This document shows positions 2,711 through 62,629 of a stretch of 64,000 bases of DNA, piece by piece; within the stretch, counting starts at the first letter, position 1; each line of letters begins with the position of its first letter. Under the pieces are notes generated by a model. That model did no database searches. It was not told the origin of the DNA and was given only the letters and a program-made list of their open reading frames with translations. The stretch comes from Podarcis cretensis (lineage: Eukaryota). The position numbers were made by a program, and so were the translations under genes. The stretch is from contig OX638153.1 in the NCBI GenBank assembly GCA_951804945.1, positions 47,926,001 to 47,990,000 on the forward strand, in the 5' to 3' direction.

Positions 2711-5006
2711 GGTTATGAAATGGCCTCTTCTCTGCACTTGTAAAGCACCAGATGTGAGTCTGGATAGAGATATTTATTTGCTTTATCTTTGATTCATTAT
2801 CTGGGATGCTTATGCCACTGAATCCATATTAGTGGCCTTTATATCATCAGGCTTTTTCAGTGGATAGTCTCACTTGCAATATTCCTGCTTAGAAGTAATT
2901 TACACACATGGATACTGCTTTATTAAATTTTTCAAGCTCATTTCCAGTGGTTTTTTGTTGTTTTAAAAAAAGCCAGTCTATATTTGTGACCCATTGCACA
3001 GAAATGATGCAGCTCACATATGTGCAAAAATAGTATAGAGGTGGCATTTTTCAAAAAAGTCAGTCTGTCATCCCCATGAATTGAACTGTCATACAAATGT
3101 TGGGGGTGTAGACTTAAATCTCTCTCTGGGCATCGTCATTTTCTACGTTTTACTTGGAATCTAGCTCACAAATGACATTAAGTAAATGTTAAGCAGAAAC
3201 AATAGCATCATGCTAAGTCCCACTGAGTCCAATGGGACTTCATAGAAGTTGTGTTGAGGATTAAATCTAAAGCACTTTGAACATTTAAAAAACTGAAATC
3301 TAAATTATGAAAACTTTTTTTAAAAGTCTAAAAAGCTAAAAACACTGAATATTCTTATCAGCTCAGAGATTGTTCATGTTGTAAAACTTTTCATCTGTTA
3401 TATTTTTTTAGAATGGCAGACAGGAAGAAATCAAAATTAAGAGGCAATTATTTCCGTAGTAACAAACCAAAGAACACTTTCTCTCCCTTGATCTATTATA
3501 GTGCTAAACTGTGGATCTAGCCCTAAGTATATGGGGTTCAGGCAGCAGAAAAATATTCCTTTTCATTTTCCATATTGAACACATCATTTAATTTGGCTAG
3601 AAGCTGCCTTCTTAATTTAAATTCATTAGGTACTTGCTATCCTGCGCAGTGAAAACAAGATTTTTTCCTCCTGAGATTGCTTATATGTCCCATTACCTGC
3701 TGTAATAGTCATCATAATAAATTCATAAAAATGAAGCAAAGTTTTTCCCCTGCTATCATCATTGGCTTGCTGATGCCTGATCACTAAACATTTATTGCTC
3801 CTGGTTATTTATGTAGCATAAAGATTGAAGATTGATTTTCTAATACTAGGTGGGGTTTGCTGTGCTAGCAGCTGGTTAAATTTCCTTTGGAGTATTCAAG
3901 AGAGCAAAATTGATCCAAGGATAGAGGAAAATAATTAAGATATATACTGTACTCTATCAATATTGTTCTGCTCTGATCTCAGGCATGTCCTATGCCCCTC
4001 AATGGAAGCTCCACGATATCACTCAATGCACATTTGTTACTCTACATCTCCATGATTGTGTCTTGTTCTGAAATCAGGTTCTAAGGCCAAGGGCAGAGAC
4101 AAATGCAATACAAGATGGTGGCTCACAGTGGCGTCCTCCTACCTTTGCAACTGCTCTGGCATCCAGATAGATTGAATACTGCTCTTGCTCCTTTGGGGCC
4201 ATGCTTCAGTCTCCACCAACATCTGAAGGGCTGCAGGTTCCCCATCTCTACTCAAAGCCATGGTTTGTCTGCTGTACATCTGGAAGCCCAAACCATGGTG
4301 TGTGTTCTCAGCTCTGGTTAGCACATGGTTTGGCGTGATGTCTGAATTGAGCCACAGATAGAGGGAATGAGAGAAATATAGGAAGCTATTGTAGGCTCAG
4401 AATAAGGCTGAGTTTTCTGGAGATTTGTAGAGGAATGGTGAAGCTATGGACATTCACAAGGCCCCTAGCTGGAATTGAAATGCAGGACTGGCCCAAGACT
4501 CCAGTTCATAAAACAATGTGTTTGCCATGATATCTGAGAGAAAGAGAAGAGAGCGCTCAGCAGACACTGGAGTTTACAGGAGAAAGCTGCTTATTCACTT
4601 TGCAAGGCTTTGGTCAGACTTTTGATGATACACAGAAGGGAAATATAAGGCAACAGAAGAACTTGGCTACTGCATCACTTTATTCCTTTGAGACAGGATG
4701 ACACAAGTCTTCCTAGCATAACTTCTGAAATTGCCACCATAGAAACTAGAGTCATAAAAAAAAAAGTTTGTCCCTTGGGACCAGAGAAGGGGAATGGCAT
4801 TTTGAATACCGTATATACTGCCACACAGCTTCGTTTCTTCAATAGCAAGTGTATTCTTTCTGTGGCTTAGGGACTTCTGCCCTCCCCACACTGTTCTACC
4901 TGGCTGCATCAGCTGTGGTGTGAGGGAAAACACAAGAGGAAAGCAGTCTGTCTTTCTCCTCTAAGAAGATAGCCTGACAAAACTCCCTCCAGAGCCAATG
5001 GCTATA

Positions 5007-5248
5007 CAGTGGTACCTCGGGTTACATATGCTTCAGGTTACATACGCTTCAGGTTACAGACTCCACTAACCCCGAAATATTACCTCAGGTTAAGAACTTT
5101 GCTTCAGGATGAGAACAGAAATTGTGCTCTGGTGGTGCGGCGGCAGCAGGAGGCCCCATTAGCTAAAGTGGTGCTTCAGGTTAAGAACAGTTTCAGGTTA
5201 AGAACGGACCTCCAGAACCAATTAAGAAATGAACCCAAGGTACCACTG
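5007..5248 (+). mobile_element. Tc1/mariner MITE, copy 2, 242 bp
   Basis: Same TIRs, TA TSD (5005-6, 5249-50). Confidence 0.92.
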
Positions 5249-5257
5249 TATATTTAT

Positions 5258-21945: not shown

Positions 21946-22187
21946 CAGTGGTACCTCGGGTTAAGTACTTAATTCGTTCCGGAGGTCCATACTTAACCTG
22001 AAACTGTTCTTAACCTGAAGCACCACTTTAGCTAATGGGGCCTCTTGCTGCTGCCGCACCGCCGGAGCACGATTTCTGTTCTCATCCTGAAGCAAAGTTC
22101 TTAACCTGAAGCACTATTTCTGGGTTAGCGGAGTATGTAACCTGAAGCGTATGTAACCTGAAACGTATGTAACCCGAGGTACCACTG
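21946..22187 (-). mobile_element. Tc1/mariner MITE, copy 3, 242 bp
   Basis: Perfect TIR CAGTGGTACCTCGGGTTA, TA TSD, inverted relative to copies 1-2. Confidence 0.92.
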
Positions 22188-24554
22188 TACAAGGAAGCAT
22201 CAAAAGAATGCCAAGGTGCATAAAACTGCAGTCATTTGAAGGGAACCGTGTGCCTGCGTAGGTCATGTGAATTTGCAGCATTCCCTTCATGAAAAGAGGA
22301 CCCCACCAACTGAATAGAAGCTTGGTCACAACCATCATTTCATGATAGTACAGGATAGTACCGGCTGCCCTAACATCACCTAGCTGTCAGTATTCCAGAG
22401 CACCATGACTGATGTTAGCAATTAAAGAACAAAATGGAAAGAGGCTTTAAACTACTGGAGTTCAAATCTTAAAGACGGCATATGGTATTGGGCTCTGTGC
22501 TACTGAAGCTGGAATTGGACTTATAAAAAAAGGAGTAGAGAGCAAAGAGAAAGAGAGAGAAATGGTTTTTAAAATGGTCACAGCACTGCGGGTCAGAGGA
22601 TTTCTTTTCATCCTTAACCGTGGGAGCATTTGCGAAACAATCCCTACTATCTGGTATAGCATGCTAGGGAAATGATCTATGCAGTTGCAGGGAGATTAGA
22701 CAAATTCATGGAGGATCAATGAATTTCAGTGGCTACGGATCATCTGTCTATCTGCTACCTACATTGTTAAGTGTTGGATTTTCATAGGTGTTCCAGGGTT
22801 TCTCATCCACACCAGTAGGTTGTACTTGTTGGAATGTTTCTGTGTTGTGTTTCTTGGCAATTGCTACTCCCCTATCGTTCACTACTTTTTTCTTGTTTTG
22901 GGCTTGCATACAAGTGTTTTCACAGGAAGTGTGCAGATGTTACAAGGCCCTAGTTGTCAATATTTACCCTAGGGTGGGAGCCTAAGGATACTTCAGAGTA
23001 ACTCCCATTGAAACCCAAGAGATGTATCTGTGAGTAAATAGGGATAGAATCAAGTTGATACCTGCCTGTTTGGGAGGGCTAGTCCTATAGGGAGCATAAA
23101 AGGATACAAGGCAGATAGTTACCCTTTCTTACAGTGCAGCCTCCAAGACTGAATTCCTGGCTCATGCAATCCTACCTTGTAATGCTCACCTCTCCAAAAA
23201 AAAGCCAGTAGCATTAAATGAAAAGTTGTATCTCTGCTATGGAATTCCAAGTGATGTATTAAAAATAACTATGGGAACCAGATTGCACTGCACAATTATG
23301 TCAGATACATATATATGTGTGTGTATGTGTATATATATACACACACACACACAAAAACCTAAATTTCCTTTAAAAAAACCCTTCTACTCAATAAAAAACA
23401 AGCAGAAAATACATATTCAAGAGCTCAAAGTTATCCATAATGGATGGCAAGCATGAGACCATATTATCTCTCATGGCACAAGACAGATTGCTGGAAAGAG
23501 GAAGATACAGCGAAATGTGAAAGGTGCAGATACTAGTAAAGTAACTTGGAAAGTCTGTGAAGTTTGTTTGATAACAAAATGACTGCAAGGATTCTTTAAG
23601 ACAAGCAGCAAATGAAGACCCAACAGTCGCTGCAAATTAAAACAAATAAAAGCACACTGATGTAGGATAACATTTATTGAAATGTGACAGTAAATCAGTG
23701 TTATCCTGCAGAAGCCTTATTTCCACAGTTAGAGATCACAGCTGGGATTCAAAATAAAAGTCATACTTTAGGGAGGAAACCTCTCTGTAACTCCGGGGAT
23801 ATTGGAAAATACTGTCTTTCACGTAAGTGAAATCAGAATTTAAGGAGCCCTGGAATCTGCTAAACTCCAGCAACGTACGCATAAAGAGTGTCTCTGGGCA
23901 AATGGAGAATGTCTTTCCCTTAGCCCTAAGTCCTCACACATGGGGAAATAGCATCCAGATTAGAAGTTGCAACTGCCTGCAAAATATGCTTGAACTTCGT
24001 TTCTCACACTAGAAACGAAATCTTGATTAGTGACTGCTTCTTGCACCTTCCCCCAATGCATCCAGAAAGCAACTTCAATGAAACCAATCAGCTTATTTAA
24101 AATGGGAGGATTGGCATTCTATTCCACTTAAGCATCCGCAATCAGCAACCATTTTTGGAGCACCGTATTTTGCACTGGTGGAGAGAGCTGGGAACTGCCA
24201 CCTTGCTTCATTTAGTCCAGCTAAAACACTGAAGGAGAGGATGATGAGAAAAATCAAATTCCTCCCTCGCGATACTCCATGCTTTCCTTGAGAGGTCCAT
24301 TTCAAAGTTGAGACAAGTGATTCTATACCATGTTTTCTTCTAAATTGCACAGCATGTTATAGTGGAGTCAATGGTATGGCTATGGCTCTTAAGGGACACT
24401 TGCTGCTGTTACAAGATGCCTTAATAGTTGCTAGGCAACTGTTGCATTGGGTTCACTATGGCCAAGGAGAGCTACTGTTTTCACTGTTTACTGTGGGTCC
24501 AAAAATGCCAGGTTTGCATAAGAGCAATTGAGCATATGCCGTAAGTCCATTGAA

Positions 24555-33182: not shown

Positions 33183-33540
33183 GGACGCAGGTGGCGCTGT
33201 GGGTTAAAGCCTCAGCGCCTAGGGCTTGCCGATCGAAAGGTCGGCGGTTCGAATCCCCGCGGCGGGGTGCGCTCCCGCTGCTCGGTCCCAGCGCCTGCCA
33301 ACCTAGCAGTTCGAAAACAACCCCGGGTGCAAGTAGATAAATAGGGACCGCTTACCAGCGGGAAGGTAAACGGCGTTTCCGTGTGCGGCTCTGGCTCGCC
33401 AGAGCAGCGATGTCACGCTGGCCACGTGACCCGGAAGTGTCTCCGGACAGCGCTGGCCCCTGGCCTCTTAAGTGAGATGGGCGCACAACCCCAGAGTCTG
33501 TCAAGACTGGCCCGTACGGGCAGGGGTACCTTTACCTTTT
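33183..33540 (+). mobile_element. Sauria SINE (Squam1), young
   Basis: GGACGCAGGTGGCGCTGTGG A box, GGTTCGAATCC B box, CpG-rich body, (ACCTTT)n tail, TSD TTTATCCTGA(GGA) at 33173 and 33541. Confidence 0.93.
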
Positions 33541-34807
33541 TTTATCCTGAGGAAAACCAGCTAACATATCCACTGCTGATGTCACTGCTGTGTTTGATAG
33601 GCTGACCATCTGAAAAGTGCTAAACAATGTCTGGGCCAATTGACTTGGAGCTAAGAGCAACCAGAAGCAGGCAGTGGGATGCGGTGGAAAAGAGAAGATT
33701 TTGGAGAGCGGAGAAGTGGGCTGAAATTGCTGCTTTCAGATTCAGTTACTGCAGGACCTTGGAGAGCTCCCAGGGACACCCAGAGCTGATTCAAGAAAGT
33801 CCAATGCTAAGCTGACCCTTCAAAAACCCTAGTAGGGTCAGATGATGGCTAGGGTCCCAGATGGTGTGTCTGTAATAGAATGTGCATTTGGATACACAAC
33901 CGTTTCTGCCTTGTAGTTTAAATGACCCTATGGCAGAGCTGGGCTCAGGGTACAGGTGCATGGGGTCTGACAGTGCATGTTTGGGGGGGGGGACTTTTTA
34001 GGCTCCAGGCTAAAAAGAGGTTTTATGTAAAACCAAGGCATTCATTATTAAGCAGATTATAAATCCTCATTAATGAAATTTTAAATTGACAGGTCATTTG
34101 CTTCCCTTTTGTCTCCCAACTCCAGTGGGTGAGAGCTTGTGATCTGCTCTCTGACTCATCTGAATTCAGTGACAGGATGAGGGCAGTCCCTGCCAGTCTT
34201 GGGGGAAGTGAGAGCTTGACTTCCCTAAATGCTCTCATCTTCAGGAACTCTTGTCTCTTATCCCGTTTTTGTATATGCTTCATGCACATATGGGCAACAT
34301 ATTTTATTGGTAGCAGTTTTCGAAAAATCAAAAGCAGCCTGGACAGGCTAGGAGACTGAGAAGAAAAATGTTGAGAGGGGCTAAATAATCATTCCATCAC
34401 CTCCCAAGTCCTTTTGAGCTTGAGAGTTTCCTCCCCCAGCTGTTTGTTTGTTTTTTTAGTCTAGAATGTCCCCGTAGGGAACTATATTTTTTTCCACTGC
34501 TGGTGAAAAAGCAACCAGGGGAGCATTTCTGGACTGAAATAATGACCAAAGGGTGAAAAGATTTACCCACCGCCCTTCTTCCTCTCAAACCTGCAGCTCT
34601 CCCTGGACAGCTGCGAAGAGGAATTATAGAACACCATATAGCACAATGTTTAAACCTCAGATTAATACACCTCTTGAACTTTATTTAAAATGATGTCCAC
34701 AGACATGTACAGGAGTTTGTGCTGAATTTTATCTGCAAGAATGACACAAGAGTTTGGAAAGGACAGCTAGAACCATCTAAAATGTTTTTTAAAAAACAAT
34801 ATGGATT

Positions 34808-37035: not shown

Positions 37036-37277
37036 CAGTAGTACCTCGGGTTAAGTACTTAATTCGTTCCGGAGGTCCATTCTTAACCTGAAACTGTTCT
37101 TAACCTGAAGCACCACTTTAGCTAATGGGGCCTCCTCCTGCTGCCGAACCGCTGGAGCACAATTTCTGTTCTCATCCTGAAGCAAAGTTCTTAACCCGAG
37201 GTAATATTTCTGGGTTAGCGGAGTCTGTAACCTGAAGCGTATCTAACCTGAAGCATATGTAACCTGAGGTACCAGTG
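37036..37277 (-). mobile_element. Tc1/mariner MITE, copy 4, 242 bp
   Basis: TIRs with a few substitutions (CAGTAGTACCTCGGG / CCTGAGGTACCAGTG); flanks TG and TA. Confidence 0.88.
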
Positions 37278-37496
37278 TATTCATTTCTGCACCATTCACT
37301 TTAGTCAAGGGAGAGCTGCAAGGACAAAAAGCACAGTCAGGGCTATCCCTTTCCATCAGTAGGAATGGGCCTTCTCCCTTTGAGGAGAAGAAGAACTTCA
37401 TCAAGGTGAGAGAATTAACTACTCGGGACCCCTGAGCATAAAGTCTCAACCCACCAAAGGGGTAGGGCATAAGCAGGAATTGGCCAATGCCTTAAC

Positions 37497-39820: not shown

Positions 39821-40225
39821 TTCAGAACTTACTGGGTTAATTGTGTTCTGAGTTGTGCCTCCCATTCTCTGACATTTGAAAGGAGGGAGGAGCTCTACTT
39901 GTTGTTCTCTCTGTGTCTCTGAGAGAGCAGGACGCCATGAATGCTAGCAGTCCAGGAGGAGCTGAGAAATGCTGAGCTGTAAATATTTGCTGCAATAAAG
40001 AACTGTTGAATTTGGACACACAATGCTTGGTGTGTTTGGATCTGAAGCAGGCTCACAACAGTTTTGATCCGCTGTGTTTTTACTCTGCAAGGCGAAACCG
40101 GAGAGGAGAAGGTCTGAGAGCAGCGTGGCTGGGAAGCGTGCCGGACCACATTATACTGGGGCTAATTGGGGCCATAAAGCAATTAGCTGGCCAGTGCAAT
40201 TAAGATCTTATCAGATTTCGTCACA
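39821..40225 (+). repeat. 5' LTR (405 bp, lacks the first 8 nt TGTTGGGA)
   Basis: Matches 43147-43551 with 2 substitutions seen; AATAAA at 39994; ends in ..TCACA. Confidence 0.95.
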
Positions 40226-40239
40226 GGTTATGGAGGACC
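40226..40239 (+). promoter_or_regulatory. Primer-binding site, copia type (tRNA-iMet anticodon-arm), diverged
   Basis: GGTTATGGAGGACC directly after the LTR; the first 8 nt match the Drosophila copia-type GGTTATGGGCCCAG. Confidence 0.7.
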
Positions 40240-40475
40240 TAATTACCGCTAATAAAACTGTTGCTGTGAGTCTGCCGGTGAGCTTTGAAGTCAGCTTTGA
40301 AGAGCTGGGAGGACGCTAGACGAAGCGGAGGTCTGCGTTCTGTGTTTTGCCTGCTGCAGAGAGGCAAGAGTTGCTGAGGCAGAGAGCTGGGAAAGCAGCT
40401 GTGAAGAATCGGGTGCCGGAGAGCTGACTGGTGAAACGTGAGTACAGCAGCTGGGGCCCCGGGAAAGAGGAGAAA

Positions 40476-40874
40476 ATGGCAGACAGCCAGGTCCTGGAGG
40501 ACGTTCCGCTTGAAAAGCTCACTTTAAGAAGTTGGGCAACCTGGTCCAGAAGAGTAAGGGGTTGGTTTCTGGTTACTGGGCTTTGGGATGTAAGCCAGAA
40601 AGAGCCACTTCCCCTGACAGACATTGCAGGCTTTGAGGCTGCGTTGCCTGAAGATAGCCAGCAGAGAATGCAAAGAGAGCTTGCTATGCTGAAAGCATGC
40701 GTACATGCATCACTTTTGCCCAGTTTGGAGGGCGTAAAGTCAGCAAGGGCTGCCTGGGAGGTGCTGAGAAGTTTGTGTGAAACTTCAGCAGGAGACCGGA
40801 GCCCTGGACAAGTCATGCAGAGCCTGGAGATGGCTGTAGCCCCAGTCCCTGAGGTGCAAGTCGGGGGGGGCTGA
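40476..40874 (+). CDS. gag: Copia Gag N-terminal part (DUF4219/UBN2-like), ended by a frameshift in a G8 run
   Basis: EKLTLRSWATWSRRVRGWFLVTGLWDV...VKSARAAWEVLRSL fits the copia gag pattern (KL..NY..W......L....LW; TA..AW..L). Confidence 0.8.
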   Translation: MADSQVLEDVPLEKLTLRSWATWSRRVRGWFLVTGLWDVSQKEPLPLTDIAGFEAALPEDSQQRMQRELAMLKACVHASLLPSLEGVKSARAAWEVLRSLCETSAGDRSPGQVMQSLEMAVAPVPEVQVGGG

Positions 40875-40908
40875 GAATTCCAAAGGCAAGTTTCAAAAGT
40901 TTTCCACT

Positions 40909-42981
40909 GTGAGTGCTGAAGTGAAACGCAGTTTCAGCGAGGGCAGGGCTGGCACAGAGTGCTCTTCCGGAAGAAGGGGGGCCAGGCCAGCTGAAAGGAG
41001 CCCTGGGCAGTATTTTTCCACTGGGGATTGTCGTCGTCAGCCAAAGTCTGGAAGGCTGAGGCGAGCTAGACGTTTCAAGGTCGGCCACCTGGACAAAGTG
41101 AAGATAAGGCCTAAAGAGTCGCGTGGGAACGCAGAGGCCAGGCCGGTCTCCAAGGCAACGGAGGAGGCTACTTCTACGGAAGCTGCCAAGGTCCTGAGCA
41201 AGGGGGAGTTGGTTGCCAAGACAACCAGACAGAACTGCTGCAGAAGCCCAGAGAGAGGGGGCAGCGATACGTTTGTTGCCAGTATGGCTTTGTTTGAGGA
41301 CAGCTCTGAGAGACACACTGATTTTCGCTTTTTAATCGACTCAGCAGCTAACTGCAACCTGATCCCAGAGACCCCTGCAGTCGAGATGTGGAATTGCAAG
41401 GCAATTCCGGCTGGGAAAACTGTTCAGTTTGCAAGTGGGGAAAAGAAAAATGTGACTAACATTGCAAATGTATTGTTTTCTGTTTTGCAGGAGCAGATGG
41501 AAGTGTGCATTGTGCCGGGAGTGCAACACTGTATTTTATCTGTGCCTTATTTGTTGAAAAAGGGGTTTAAGGTTTGCTTTGAACACGATGTTTGTACAAT
41601 CTCCAAAGGAGGGAAGCAACTGGTCAGAGTTGCAAAGGGGCAGAATGATCTCTTCATTCTTAAAACGTCTCTGGAGGGTGAGGGGAAGGTTGAGAAAGCA
41701 CAAGCCCTGCGTGCTACAGTTCCCACTCATGTTTCATGTTCTTGTGTGTGGCATAAGAAGACAGCGCATGCTTGTCTTGAAGAACTACAGGTGCTACCTG
41801 AGGTTTCCAAAGGCTGTAGAATTGAAGAATGTGCAAGAGTCCTAGATTGTCAGGCTTGCAGACAGGCAAAGGTAAGAGGGTGCAGTTACCCCAGGGTGGA
41901 GAGGGTAACCACAAAACCTTTTGATCTTGTGCACATAGATCTGTTGGGTCCCATGAAGGAACCAAGTTTGGGAGGGGCCAGGTTTCTGCTGACACTGCAG
42001 GATGATTTTTCGCAGACCACCTGGACACATGGTCTCAAATCCAAGGAAGATGCAGCACAGCTGATTAGACGTTGGATTGAGGAGGTGGAACTAATGTTCT
42101 CCACGAAGGTCAGGGAAATTACTAGTGACAGAGGTTCACAGTTTACTGGGTCTGCTTTGCAGAAGTTCTTTCACAAGAAAGGGATAAGTCACACAGTGAC
42201 TTCTCCTCAACAGAGGGGGGTGGCAGAGCTCAGAAGTGAGGCTCTGGTTAAGGCTGCACAGGTGATGCTGTCAGATTCTGGGTTATCTCCAAAGTTTTGG
42301 ATGGAGGCAGTTAAATATGTGAGCTTCACCTGGAATCGGTCCTACAATTCAGTGGTAGGAGACACACCGTTTTTCATGCTTCACGGGAGGAAACCGCAGG
42401 TTCACTTCCTCCGTGCGTTCGGATCAACGGCCTTGCTGCCGGTGCCTGAAGCTTTGCGAGGGCCAGGTGAACCCGAGTTCCAGAAAATGATCTTCTGTGG
42501 GTATGAGCCAACGGCTCGTGCATGGAGGTTTGCGTACCCGTCAGGTGATCAGAGTAAGTTGCTGATCAGTAAACACGCTGAGTTCTGTAAGCAGGAGGAA
42601 AGGTCAAAGACCCCTGCCAGACGCGATATTCTTTCAGAATGTCTTTCTGATTCAGAGGAGGAAGGTTCTGATGAGGAGGAAGGAGAGCCAGGGGCTGAGT
42701 CTGCTGATGACGATCAGCTCACTGACCAAAGTCAGGAGCAGGATGGGGCATCTCCCCAAGTTGTAAAAAGAGAGCCCAAGAGTGAGCCTAGTTCTCCTGT
42801 GAGGGTAATTCCAAGGGTTCGAAGACGCGTTATAAGTCAGAGGGGGAATCCCAGGATGCAGAGGACACACCTGCTGACCACAGTGAGTCAGAGGAAGTGC
42901 CTGAGTTTGTGCCCAGGCGGTCCAGTCGCACAACGAAGGGAATTCCACCTGAGAGGTATCAGGCCACAGGTGCGTGGGTAA
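40909..42981 (+). CDS. pol: Copia pol fragment: aspartic protease, GAG-pre-integrase (HHCC), rve integrase, acidic linker
   Basis: FLIDSAA (D at 41338); WHKKTAH..CQAC (41749-41859); VHIDLLGP (D 41938), SDRG (D 42127), GVAE (E 42226); FWMEAV..NR, TPF..LHGRKP..FLRAFGS, IFCGYE. Confidence 0.92.
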   Translation: MSAEVKRSFSEGRAGTECSSGRRGARPAERSPGQYFSTGDCRRQPKSGRLRRARRFKVGHLDKVKIRPKESRGNAEARPVSKATEEATSTEAAKVLSKGELVAKTTRQNCCRSPERGGSDTFVASMALFEDSSERHTDFRFLIDSAANCNLIPETPAVEMWNCKAIPAGKTVQFASGEKKNVTNIANVLFSVLQEQMEVCIVPGVQHCILSVPYLLKKGFKVCFEHDVCTISKGGKQLVRVAKGQNDLFILKTSLEGEGKVEKAQALRATVPTHVSCSCVWHKKTAHACLEELQVLPEVSKGCRIEECARVLDCQACRQAKVRGCSYPRVERVTTKPFDLVHIDLLGPMKEPSLGGARFLLTLQDDFSQTTWTHGLKSKEDAAQLIRRWIEEVELMFSTKVREITSDRGSQFTGSALQKFFHKKGISHTVTSPQQRGVAELRSEALVKAAQVMLSDSGLSPKFWMEAVKYVSFTWNRSYNSVVGDTPFFMLHGRKPQVHFLRAFGSTALLPVPEALRGPGEPEFQKMIFCGYEPTARAWRFAYPSGDQSKLLISKHAEFCKQEERSKTPARRDILSECLSDSEEEGSDEEEGEPGAESADDDQLTDQSQEQDGASPQVVKREPKSEPSSPVRVIPRVRRRVISQRGNPRMQRTHLLTTVSQRKCLSLCPGGPVAQRREFHLRGIRPQVRG

Positions 42982-43123: not shown

Positions 43124-43138
43124 GGAGGCAAGAGGGGG
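43124..43138 (+). promoter_or_regulatory. Polypurine tract
   Basis: GGAGGCAAGAGGGGG directly before the TG of the 3' LTR. Confidence 0.85.
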
Positions 43139-43551
43139 TGTTGGGATTCAGAACTTACTGGGTTAATTGTGTTCTGAGTTGTGCCTCCCATTCTCTGACG
43201 TTTGAAAGGAGGGAGGAGCTCTACTTGTTGTTCTCTCTGTGTCTCTGAGAGAGCAGGACGCCATGAATGCTAGCAGTCCAGGAGGAGCTGAGAAATGTTG
43301 AGCTGTAAATATTTGCTGCAATAAAGAACTGTTGAATTTGGACACACAATGCTTGGTGTGTTTGGATCTGAAGCAGGCTCACAACAGTTTTGATCCGCTG
43401 TGTTTTTACTCTGCAAGGCGAAACCGGAGAGGAGAAGGTCTGAGAGCAGCGTGGCTGGGAAGCGTGCCGGACCACATTATACTGGGGCTAATTGGGGCCA
43501 TAAAGCAATTAGCTGGCCAGTGCAATTAAGATCTTATCAGATTTCGTCACA
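43139..43551 (+). repeat. 3' LTR (413 bp, TGTTGG...TCACA)
   Basis: TG..CA ends, follows the PPT, direct repeat of the 5' LTR. Confidence 0.95.
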
Positions 43552-53299: not shown

Positions 53300-54051
53300 T
53301 GTTGTTGTTTAGTCATTTAGTCGTGTCCGACTCTTCGTGACCCCATGGACCAGAGAACGCCAGGCACTCCTGTCCTCCACTGCCCCCCGCAGCTTGGTCA
53401 GACTCATGCTGGTAACCTCGAAAACACTGTCCAACCATCTCGTCCTCTGTCGCCCCCTTCTCCTTGTGCCCTCCATCTTTCCCAACATCAGGGTCTTCTC
53501 CAGGGAGTCTTCTCTTCTCATGAGGTGGCCAAAGTACTGGAGCCTCAGCTTCACAATCTGTCCTTCCAGTGAGCACTCAGGGCTGATTTCCTTCAGAATG
53601 GAGAGGTTTGATCTTCTTGCAGTCCATGGGACTCTCAAGAGTCTCCTCCAGCACCATAATTCAAAAGCATCAATTCTTCGGCGATCAGCCTTCTTTATGG
53701 TCCAGCTCTCACTTCCATACATCACTACTGGGAAAACCATAGCTTTAACTATACGGACCTTTGTTGGCAAGGTGATGTCTCTACTTCTCAAGATGCTGTC
53801 TAGGCCTGTCATTGCCCTTCTCCCAAGAAGCAGGCGTCTTTTAATTTCGTGGCTGCTGTCACCATCTGCAGTGATCATGGAGCCCAAGAAAGTAAAATCT
53901 CTCACTGCCTCCATTTCTTCCCCTTCTATTTGCCAGGAGGTGATGGGACCAGTAGCCATGATCTTCGTTTTTTTGATGTTGAGCTTCAGACCATATTTTG
54001 CACTCTCCTCTTTCAAAATATTTTGCATATTTTGCACTCTCCTCTTTCAAA
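53300..54051 (-). mobile_element. Bov-B LINE, 5'-truncated, 3' ORF open over ~235 codons
   Basis: KEESAKYGLKLNIKKTKIMA..FLGS..EIKRRL..YGSESW..HGVTKSRTRLND; (CAA)n tail; 10-bp TSD ACATTGTCCT (53290-99, 54052-61). Confidence 0.96.
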
Positions 54052-62168: not shown

Positions 62169-62533
62169 GGGGACGCGGGTGGTGCTGTGGGTAAAACCTC
62201 AGGGCCTAGGACTTGCCGATCGTATGGTCGGCGGTTCGAATCCCCGCGGCGGGGTGAGCTCCCGTCTTTCAGTCCCAGCTCTTGCCCACCTAGCAGTTTG
62301 AAAGCACCCCTAAGTGCAAGTAGATAAATAGGTACCACTTTATAGTGGGAAGGTAAATGGCGTTTCTGTGTGCTGCGCTGGTGCTGGCTCGCCAGAGCAG
62401 CTTCGTCACGCTGGCCACATGACCCGGAAGTGTCTGCGGACAGCGCTGGCCCCCGGCCTCTTAAGCGAGATGAGCGCACAACCCTAGAGTCGGACACGAC
62501 TGGCCCGCACAGGCAGGGGTACCTTTACCTTTA
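62169..62533 (+). mobile_element. Sauria SINE (Squam1)
   Basis: GGGACGCGGGTGGTGCTGTGG, GGTTCGAATCC, Bov-B-like GAGTCGGACACGACT tail, (ACCTTT)n; flanked by TATTATTATTATTGG repeats (TSD). Confidence 0.93.
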
Positions 62534-62629
62534 TTATTATTATTATTGGCAATTACAATTTTCTCCTTCCCCACAGAGGTGCATCTAGCATCTTTGTTTT
62601 ATATAAGATCTTAAAGTTCAGCTTTAGCA

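Follow-up and report, generated by a model that had tools for sequence, protein, structure and literature searches.

Within the window, by which we mean the whole 64,000-nucleotide stretch of Podarcis cretensis DNA analyzed here, lies a member of a repeat family (family A) that is a half-tRNA-primed copia with a new three-part layout for primer handling. On its plus strand, an antisense box for tRNA-iMet, a sense look-alike of the 5' half of the same tRNA and a primer-binding site (PBS) of 8 nt follow each other in this order, and together they tile the whole primer. The box was absent from the initial annotation, which had pointed out the look-alike, a neighboring hairpin and the PBS. The features are collected in Table 1, where, as throughout, tRNA positions are numbered sequentially, with the anticodon at nt 33-35.

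Table 1. Features of the family-A copy in the window
Feature	Position	Strand	Remarks
5' LTR	39821-40225	+	2 differences in 405 nt from the 3' LTR
AT-rich block with AATAAA (at about 39994)	39976-40005	+	diversity 0.01 over 73 family-A LTRs
Antisense box, two parts	40068-40088	+	40068-40076, complement of tRNA-iMet nt 11-19; 40082-40088, complement of nt 2-8
Look-alike, 5' part	40118-40124	+	best read as tRNA nt 10-16; 6/7 identical in the window copy
Look-alike, core	40132-40147	+	tRNA-iMet nt 17-32, 14/16 identical; the firmest part
Family-A hairpin with CAU-containing loop	40155-40195	+	can alternatively pair with the PBS region
PBS, 8 nt	40226-40233	+	complement of tRNA-iMet nt 32-39, at the 3' end of the half
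Gag-like polyprotein start	40476-40874	+	by position and homologues
Protease-like region (by eye), integrase core (rve), SH3-like domain	40840-42981	+	
Polypurine tract	43130-43138	+	
3' LTR	43139-43551	+	second box 43394-43414, look-alike 43445-43477, hairpin

The window copy itself is slightly damaged. Its 5' LTR lacks the first 8 nt of the family LTR, a search of its flanks found no target-site duplication, and its reading frame is disrupted near a run of G at about 40865-40871; most of the listed family copies have a single open reading frame (ORF) of about 910 aa. The gag-like region had no Pfam match, and a domain search of the window element found no reverse transcriptase (RT) and no RNase H domain. 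The AATAAA block, which has a similar counterpart in related families, is by its sequence likely to be the poly(A) signal, and the stretch downstream of it would therefore belong to U5.

Family A comprises about 270 full copies, and 268 LTR-PBS junctions fit one tight pattern. The family is young: in 13/13 fetched copies, the LTR pairs are 99.5 to 100% identical and the length is 3.74 to 3.82 kb. The internal region is coding (about 3.75 kb), and the ORF of about 910 aa, which runs from gag through a protease-like part to integrase, encloses most of the 144 integrase matches listed. The 5-bp flanks match in 7/13 fetched copies, the other 6 being unscored because the blast match ends short of the LTR end. 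LTRs, a PBS, a polypurine tract and a 5-bp target duplication, as expected of Ty1/copia (Pseudoviridae), were thus all seen in family A, and its nearest relatives (46 to 54% integrase identity) have the copia-type order of rve followed by RVT_2. Family A lacks an RT, which would thus have to be borrowed; no autonomous member was found among the 144 integrase matches or among the 33 fetched of 150 listed RT loci, and a protein search for longer relatives gave four matches at 46 to 49%, one of them a Podarcis protein at 49%. The leaders of some family-A subfamilies start like the leader of the related family H.

To identify the primer, we used tRNA copies captured behind LTRs. ARAGORN recovered real tRNA-Met(CAT) genes from the genome (L042 to L046), to which the tRNA-iMet sequence given in the initial annotation proved identical. 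A search for tails containing tRNA nt 17-39, which excludes short tails, gave 53 matches: 8 tRNA genes, 2 tRNA-like variants, 31 copies of family B and 12 capture loci from six other families. At all 12 capture loci the LTR end is followed by an antisense tRNA copy beginning at nt 39, and 7 of the 12 tails stop at nt 9 to 11. G9 of the tRNA is methylated (m1G9), and these ends fit a block at that base. At an additional locus (L180), the tail reaches nt 1 with 2 mismatches. Three of the captures belong to family A (L049, L063 and L081), with 29 to 30 nt identical to the host tRNA gene, and a genome-wide search for further family-A loci with a tRNA-templated tail found none beyond these. Since the tails behind family-A LTRs were templated by the host tRNA, they show that the 5' half of host tRNA-iMet, nt 1-39, is the primer of family A.

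In L063 and L081, the tail passes, at two different junctions, into inverted U5 sequence (its reverse complement) that starts within the look-alike. L182 has a fold-back elsewhere and carries no tRNA tail, which makes fold-backs a general habit and not proof of function. All three loci show inverted fold-back 5' ends of inserted elements that were rescued by further template switches. Long tails were captured at rates of 3/271 in family A, 2/110 in family G, which has no look-alike, and 4/26 in family D. The idea that a variant look-alike core causes read-through was rejected as unsupported (3/3 captures carry a variant core, compared with 50/100 of the first listed cores; P value about 0.125). 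Other families had tRNA-derived sequences of their own. Family B (L031, L048, L058 and 28 more copies) is young and has long ORFs. Its PBS, about 30 nt that copy tRNA nt 10-39, is fixed, while position 9 varies; from its sequence it looks like a fixed read-through product. In family G (L080/L115), a tRNA-templated tail has recombined with the antisense box of U5, and the LTR end is duplicated. The family-D LTR (L176, L053, L051 and L054) carries, about 75 nt before its PBS, a sense copy of the 3' half of tRNA-iMet (nt 39-56; 17/18 identical in L176, 0/1,000 shuffles), a separate second capture of primer-tRNA sequence.

The initial annotation took the 8-nt PBS to be drifted, a description that does not hold. 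The identical 8 nt occur in all six sampled families of the clade described below, and their length is thus the norm of the clade and not decay; in annotation, an 8-nt PBS should not count as decayed. The two nucleotides after it are hypervariable. A hand count over the first 100 listed family-A copies (of 268) found the tRNA-templated G directly behind the PBS in 43 and the second templated base (C, position 10) in 0. This junction pattern, G9 and not C10, fits a trimmed primer stub; host removal of a mismatched flap fits it equally. One family-H locus (L159) has a PBS of 14 nt behind its LTR, and its leader differs; this may be an intermediate tail or a recombinant. In family G (L113 to L116, L120 and others) the spacer between LTR end and PBS varies between 4 and 5 nt across 110 matches.

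We then examined the sense look-alike. The letters and positions that the initial annotation gave for it (40119-40151 and its counterpart in the 3' LTR), for the hairpin arms (40161-40168/40180-40187, with the outer pair 40155-40159/40191-40195) and for the PBS are correct. Aligned to the tRNA, 40119-40151 gives 36 columns, of which 28 are matches and 4 are gaps. The shuffle test proposed there bore out that the match is not random: its score was reached by 1/2,000 and 0/2,000 dinucleotide shuffles under two scoring schemes, and of 12 control tRNA halves from the genome, none (0/12) scored a P value of <0.05 against the window LTR. ARAGORN and Rfam found no tRNA and no RNA family at the site, the four Rfam matches (E > 1) lying elsewhere. 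The degenerate core has 748 matches genome-wide, and the heptamer of tRNA nt 10-16 is exact in 44 of 73 distinct family-A LTRs. The earlier statement that the match starts at tRNA nt 1 with 10 of 11 identities was flattered by the window copy, in which 40125 is G, as in 6/30 near copies (24 have T); a start at nt 1 is true of families H and N. In families A, H, I and N, the look-alike ends at tRNA nt 31-32, where PBS pairing starts (with a few extra matches in I). Within family A its diversity, estimated from 73 LTRs that are biased toward two subgroups, is 0.094 for the core and 0.141 for the 5' part, compared with 0.101 for the whole LTR. Taken with the related families, the look-alike is very probably a real, conserved feature. 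At L169, two tRNA-iMet gene variants occur whose D-arm substitutions are the two commonest polymorphisms of the family-A look-alike, by chance, selection or re-templating.

The antisense box lies upstream of the look-alike. Its duplex with the tRNA in the window copy has a predicted energy of -30.9 kcal/mol (P value = 0.003), and no stretch of the family-A LTR is better conserved (diversity of 0.001, in the top 1% of windows over 73 LTRs). When tRNA nt 1-21 was paired with the last 190 nt of the plus strand, 9/12 family representatives gave P values of ≤0.017. The combined P value was 6 × 10−12 for tRNA-iMet (300 shuffles) and 0.005 for the best of 12 control tRNAs (60 shuffles). By plain identity the family-A box is not significant (1,022/2,000 and 1,111/2,000 shuffles reach it); the signal emerges only with wobble-aware energies and across families. 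Predicted binding is two to three times stronger at the box (-24.5 to -32.2 kcal/mol) than at the PBS (-11.6 to -14.8 kcal/mol), and the box is accordingly predicted to be a second, upstream primer-binding site. Once the acceptor and D arms are opened, the rest of the tRNA from nt 40 on is predicted to form one long hairpin (-10.3 kcal/mol). In "hyperprocessing," RNase P cuts at nt 39/40 on a hairpin of such a shape. From this modeling, the box may open the tRNA for a cut at nt 39/40, with RNase P as a conceivable agent.

Next, we looked at how these features are distributed among related families, into which 33 of 150 listed RT matches were fetched and sorted. Families H, I, N, J and M carry an RT and the same 8-nt PBS as A, and where LTR pairs were measured (H, I, J and M) they are 96 to 100% identical. 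In an integrase tree that covers A, H, I, N, J, M, G, K, C and B, with D and F unplaced, a branch (86/95) separates the short-PBS families A, H, I, N, J and M from G, K, C and B. The integrases of the short-PBS relatives are 45 to 54% identical to that of A, and the LTRs cannot be aligned between families by blastn except for the pairs I/N and J/M. Conservation across related LTRs, another check suggested by the initial annotation, came out in favor of the look-alike: its sense identity was beaten by shuffles 0 (A), 0 (H), 4 (I) and 0 (N) times in 1,000, and the look-alike of family H matches 25/31 nt without gaps from tRNA nt 1. By plain identity the sense copy is not significant in J, M, D, F, G, K and C. 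In family B a sense match was reached by 5/1,000 shuffles, 267 nt before the PBS and in a palindromic stretch; this is probably chance and a warning about P values near 0.005. Since the short-PBS families are one clade, the association between PBS length and look-alike counts as a single evolutionary event. LTRs of this clade (L107, L110, L111, L119 and the 3' LTR of the window) also share a short motif 10 to 30 nt from the LTR start, possibly, to judge by the sequence, a clade signature. In copia elements from metagenomes, probed with the vertebrate tRNA and hence a weak test, 0/5 tested loci with a half-tRNA-type PBS (of 80 loci collected) had the sense copy, and 1/5 had the box (0/100 shuffles), with 1 more marginal. 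On one metagenome contig (L241), the box upstream of the half-tRNA-type PBS of a distant copia is predicted to bind tRNA nt 1-21 (0/100 shuffles, vertebrate probe).

A sense copy is unable to bind the tRNA as RNA; its minus-strand DNA copy is able to. In predicted pairings with tRNA nt 1-31, the minus strand gave P values of ≤0.033 in 6/6 short-PBS representatives and in 0/6 others, and in J and M, with nt 17-31, only the minus-strand pairing stayed significant (P values of 0.003 and 0.007, versus 0.23 and 0.16), both stretches having been chosen after the alignments were seen. With nt 1-25, none of the six long-PBS representatives tested positive, and neither did I, J or M, whose pairing therefore depends on nt 26-31. 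All 73 family-A LTRs fall into variant classes with mean energies of -38 to -45 kcal/mol, computed with RNA:RNA parameters for what would be an RNA:DNA hybrid and ignoring tRNA modifications. Both halves of the look-alike are altered in 1 of these 73 LTRs, which are phylogenetically clustered. The preference for the minus strand is not significant in general: against the null, 75 to 82% of random mutants also favor that strand, J alone lies in the tail, and family H has no strand asymmetry. An argument from the direction of wobble pairs was dropped because it was not significant against the null.

A possible mechanism follows from the order of the elements. The upstream box is predicted to bind about nt 1-20 of the primer, giving most of the binding energy and clamping the primer on the template ahead of RT. 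An RT leaving the PBS would meet and copy the look-alike first. Because nt 20-31 are free of both box and PBS, they would be available as a toehold, with which the new cDNA would pair, peeling nt 1-19 off the box. RNase H would then cut the RNA:DNA hybrid and leave a stub of about 8 to 9 nt, which is the weakest step, and the stub end would set the plus-strand stop in register with the 8-nt PBS without a stop of the m1A58 type. We are evenly divided on whether the sense copy works through the minus strand, with the nascent cDNA taking over the 5' part of the primer. Trimming of the primer by RNase H is a more tentative proposal, and so is the idea that this amounts to a new step of reverse transcription, in which an LTR-encoded guide strips the primer off its clamp for RNase H and the stop is set by sequence, which would let a half-tRNA primer function with a PBS of 8 nt; either may well be wrong. 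Several observations stand against the mechanism: the look-alike is of average conservation in A, J and M fail the identity test, and capture rates are similar in A and G. Moreover, families D, G and C have the box and no copy of the 5' half, so that in them RT would pass the box unaided. The look-alike itself likely arose when, in the ancestor of the clade, the nascent minus strand switched templates to its own primer. The initial annotation held that a by-product of reverse transcription must be antisense; this is too strong, since by standard mechanisms a nascent minus strand that switches onto the tRNA as template would yield a sense copy.

Other explanations of the sense copy have to be weighed against action through the minus strand. 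It may be a relic that entered once, when synthesis switched to the primer as template, or that is sometimes refreshed from the primer; it would then have no present function, and only box and PBS would matter. The average conservation in family A, the erosion in J and M and the low capture rate of family G without a look-alike agree with this, and the two common family-A variants, which are those of the two host genes at L169, fit re-templating. It is hard to reconcile, however, with a look-alike that persists among unalignable LTRs and integrases at 45 to 54% identity, with the minus-strand pairing retained in J and M, and with the rarity of LTRs altered in both halves (subject to their clustering). 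We consider a relic unlikely yet worth keeping in view, given the average conservation, the single evolutionary event, the strand null, the capture rates, the RNA parameters and the post hoc choice of pairing stretches. A role at the RNA level, with the look-alike masking the box as its hairpin partner, mimicking the tRNA D arm for a protein or seeding dimerization through a near-palindromic loop, has analogies in HIV-1, where a masked PAS and a tRNA-like element occur. Box and look-alike do pair in isolation (-25.7 kcal/mol in H and -20.5 kcal/mol in N), and the family-A core lies within a predicted hairpin loop; in the ensemble, however, the expected number of box:look-alike pairs is 0.6 in A, 0.0 in H, 0.0 in I and 1.6 in N (11.5 to 13.8 in J and M), in 6/6 families the tRNA is a better partner for the box than the look-alike is, the best-kept nt 20-32 have no partner in the box, and the anticodon lies outside the conserved copy. 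Such a role therefore seems quite unlikely.

The look-alike might also serve the plus strand by docking the 30-nt tRNA-templated tail of plus-strand strong-stop DNA at the second strand transfer. Two of the three family-A captures (L063 and L081) continue as inverted U5 from the look-alike, and so tail and look-alike can pair; these products are aberrant, though, and the fold-back of L182 arose elsewhere and without a tRNA tail. As tails mostly end at nt 9 to 11, nt 1-7, which H and N keep, could not pair with them, and J and M have lost tail pairing, which makes the docking improbable. Finally, the initial annotation had raised the possibility that the element encodes its own primer, in the manner of Tf1 and with a small RNA starting at 40119; a Pol III promoter as in Helenus may be considered alongside it. 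The hairpin loop does hold a 6-bp complement of the PBS, with a pair probability of about 0.2 in the local 97-nt fold, 1.3 kcal/mol above the local optimum. Three family-A loci that copy the host tRNA over 29 to 30 identical nt largely refute an own primer, and the look-alike ends short of the nt 32-39 required by the PBS, which leaves self-priming unsupported. The PBS complement, moreover, would lie about 170 nt inside the predicted transcript and not at its 5' end. Our pattern for a B-box-like motif matched 0/15 representatives of LTR plus leader, and the A-box region is degenerate. Either possibility is extremely improbable. As to the hairpin itself, it is present in family A, as annotated, and inspection by eye found no such CAU loop in the five families that share the PBS (H, I, N, J and M). 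It would thus be at most a family-specific modulator. A switch between U5 and PBS, also suggested in the initial annotation, is thermodynamically possible in family A only, where changes in the hairpin stem are one-sided and no compensatory change was seen. A role as decoy or mimic, likewise raised there, is conceivable.

Compared with known systems, family A stands closest to copia elements primed by half a tRNA, the Hemivirus type of Drosophila copia and yeast Ty5 and of the plant elements Osser and Bryco, in which the 5' half of tRNA-iMet is cut in the anticodon arm (PMC8515867); three further papers describe the same priming, with a PBS complementary to the new 3' end of the half (PMC10275265, PMC5371799, PMC6317226). 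Family A shares the tRNA-iMet 5'-half primer, a PBS to its 3' end and 5-bp target duplications, and its assignment to this type, which relies on the type of primer, is indicated by a PBS complementary to nt 32-39 and tails that begin at nt 39. It differs in that its PBS has 8 nt, most of the predicted binding lies upstream in the LTR, and a sense copy stands between box and PBS. In Ty1 (boxes 0, 1 and 2.1) and Ty3 (split PBS), extra RNA segments complement other arms of the primer (PMC3592414, PMC5371799). Family A resembles these and the retroviral PAS in combining a short PBS with extra conserved primer-complementary segments, for which pairing is here predicted. Those systems use the full 3' end of the tRNA and have antisense extra sites, whereas family A uses a half primer, has its box 70 to 180 nt upstream, in the path of RT, and has a second element that is sense.

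Sequences resembling tRNAs are known from other LTRs. Helenus, Cassandra and Ajax are described by Kojima (2024) as non-autonomous TRIMs with tRNA-like LTR sequence, and some fungal Helenus elements as primed at tRNA-iMet's anticodon loop (PMC10886601). In Helenus (TRIMp3), according to that paper, the retained A and B boxes form a Pol III promoter, the short internal region is non-coding, and the tRNA-like part does not contribute to priming (PMC10886601). Family A, in contrast, has no B box, the tRNA copied is the primer itself, the ORF has about 910 aa, and RT-bearing relatives carry the copy. HIV-1 likewise has primer-related LTR sequence with a proposed role in reverse transcription. A tRNA-Lys3-like sequence in its U3-R reportedly (Piekna-Przybylska, 2010) pairs with the tRNA at the RNA level and aids minus-strand transfer, and a TLE in its U5 mimics the anticodon for LysRS. 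In family A the copy, unlike the TLE, leaves out the anticodon and would, by prediction, act as DNA, and the CAU-loop hairpin was seen in A but, by eye, not in H, I, N, J or M. Elements of the Tf1 type use no tRNA primer and have a PBS that complements about the first 11 nt of their transcript. With Tf1, family A shares a short PBS complement in the LTR, but its 6-bp complement is internal and not conserved in the clade, and the host-tRNA tails contradict self-priming.

The layout bears on how reverse transcription of the primer ends. In retroviruses, plus-strand copying of the primer halts at m1A58, so that the copy matches the PBS, and in HIV-1 extending beyond this stop creates a functional problem (PMC13191261). 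In a half-tRNA primer, no m1A58-like base stands at the right place, and the genome preserves cases of read-through to about nt 10; against an 8-nt PBS, this would mean a 22-nt mismatch. In the literature searched, we found no account of how half-tRNA-primed elements handle read-through, nor any paper that describes copia LTRs with a sense copy of the half used as primer or with an upstream box; an earlier mention, for example in a Repbase report, is conceivable. Since young natural families with and without the sense copy exist side by side, the question of primer handling is directly testable. Elsewhere in the window, we observed a MITE-like repeat of about 245 nt, bounded by terminal inverted repeats and flanked by TA, in four copies (2027-2275, 5003-5251, 21946-22189 and 37036-37279) and, by eye, two SINE-like copies (33202-33542 and 62189-62535) and an RT-like LINE fragment on the minus strand (53312-54046).
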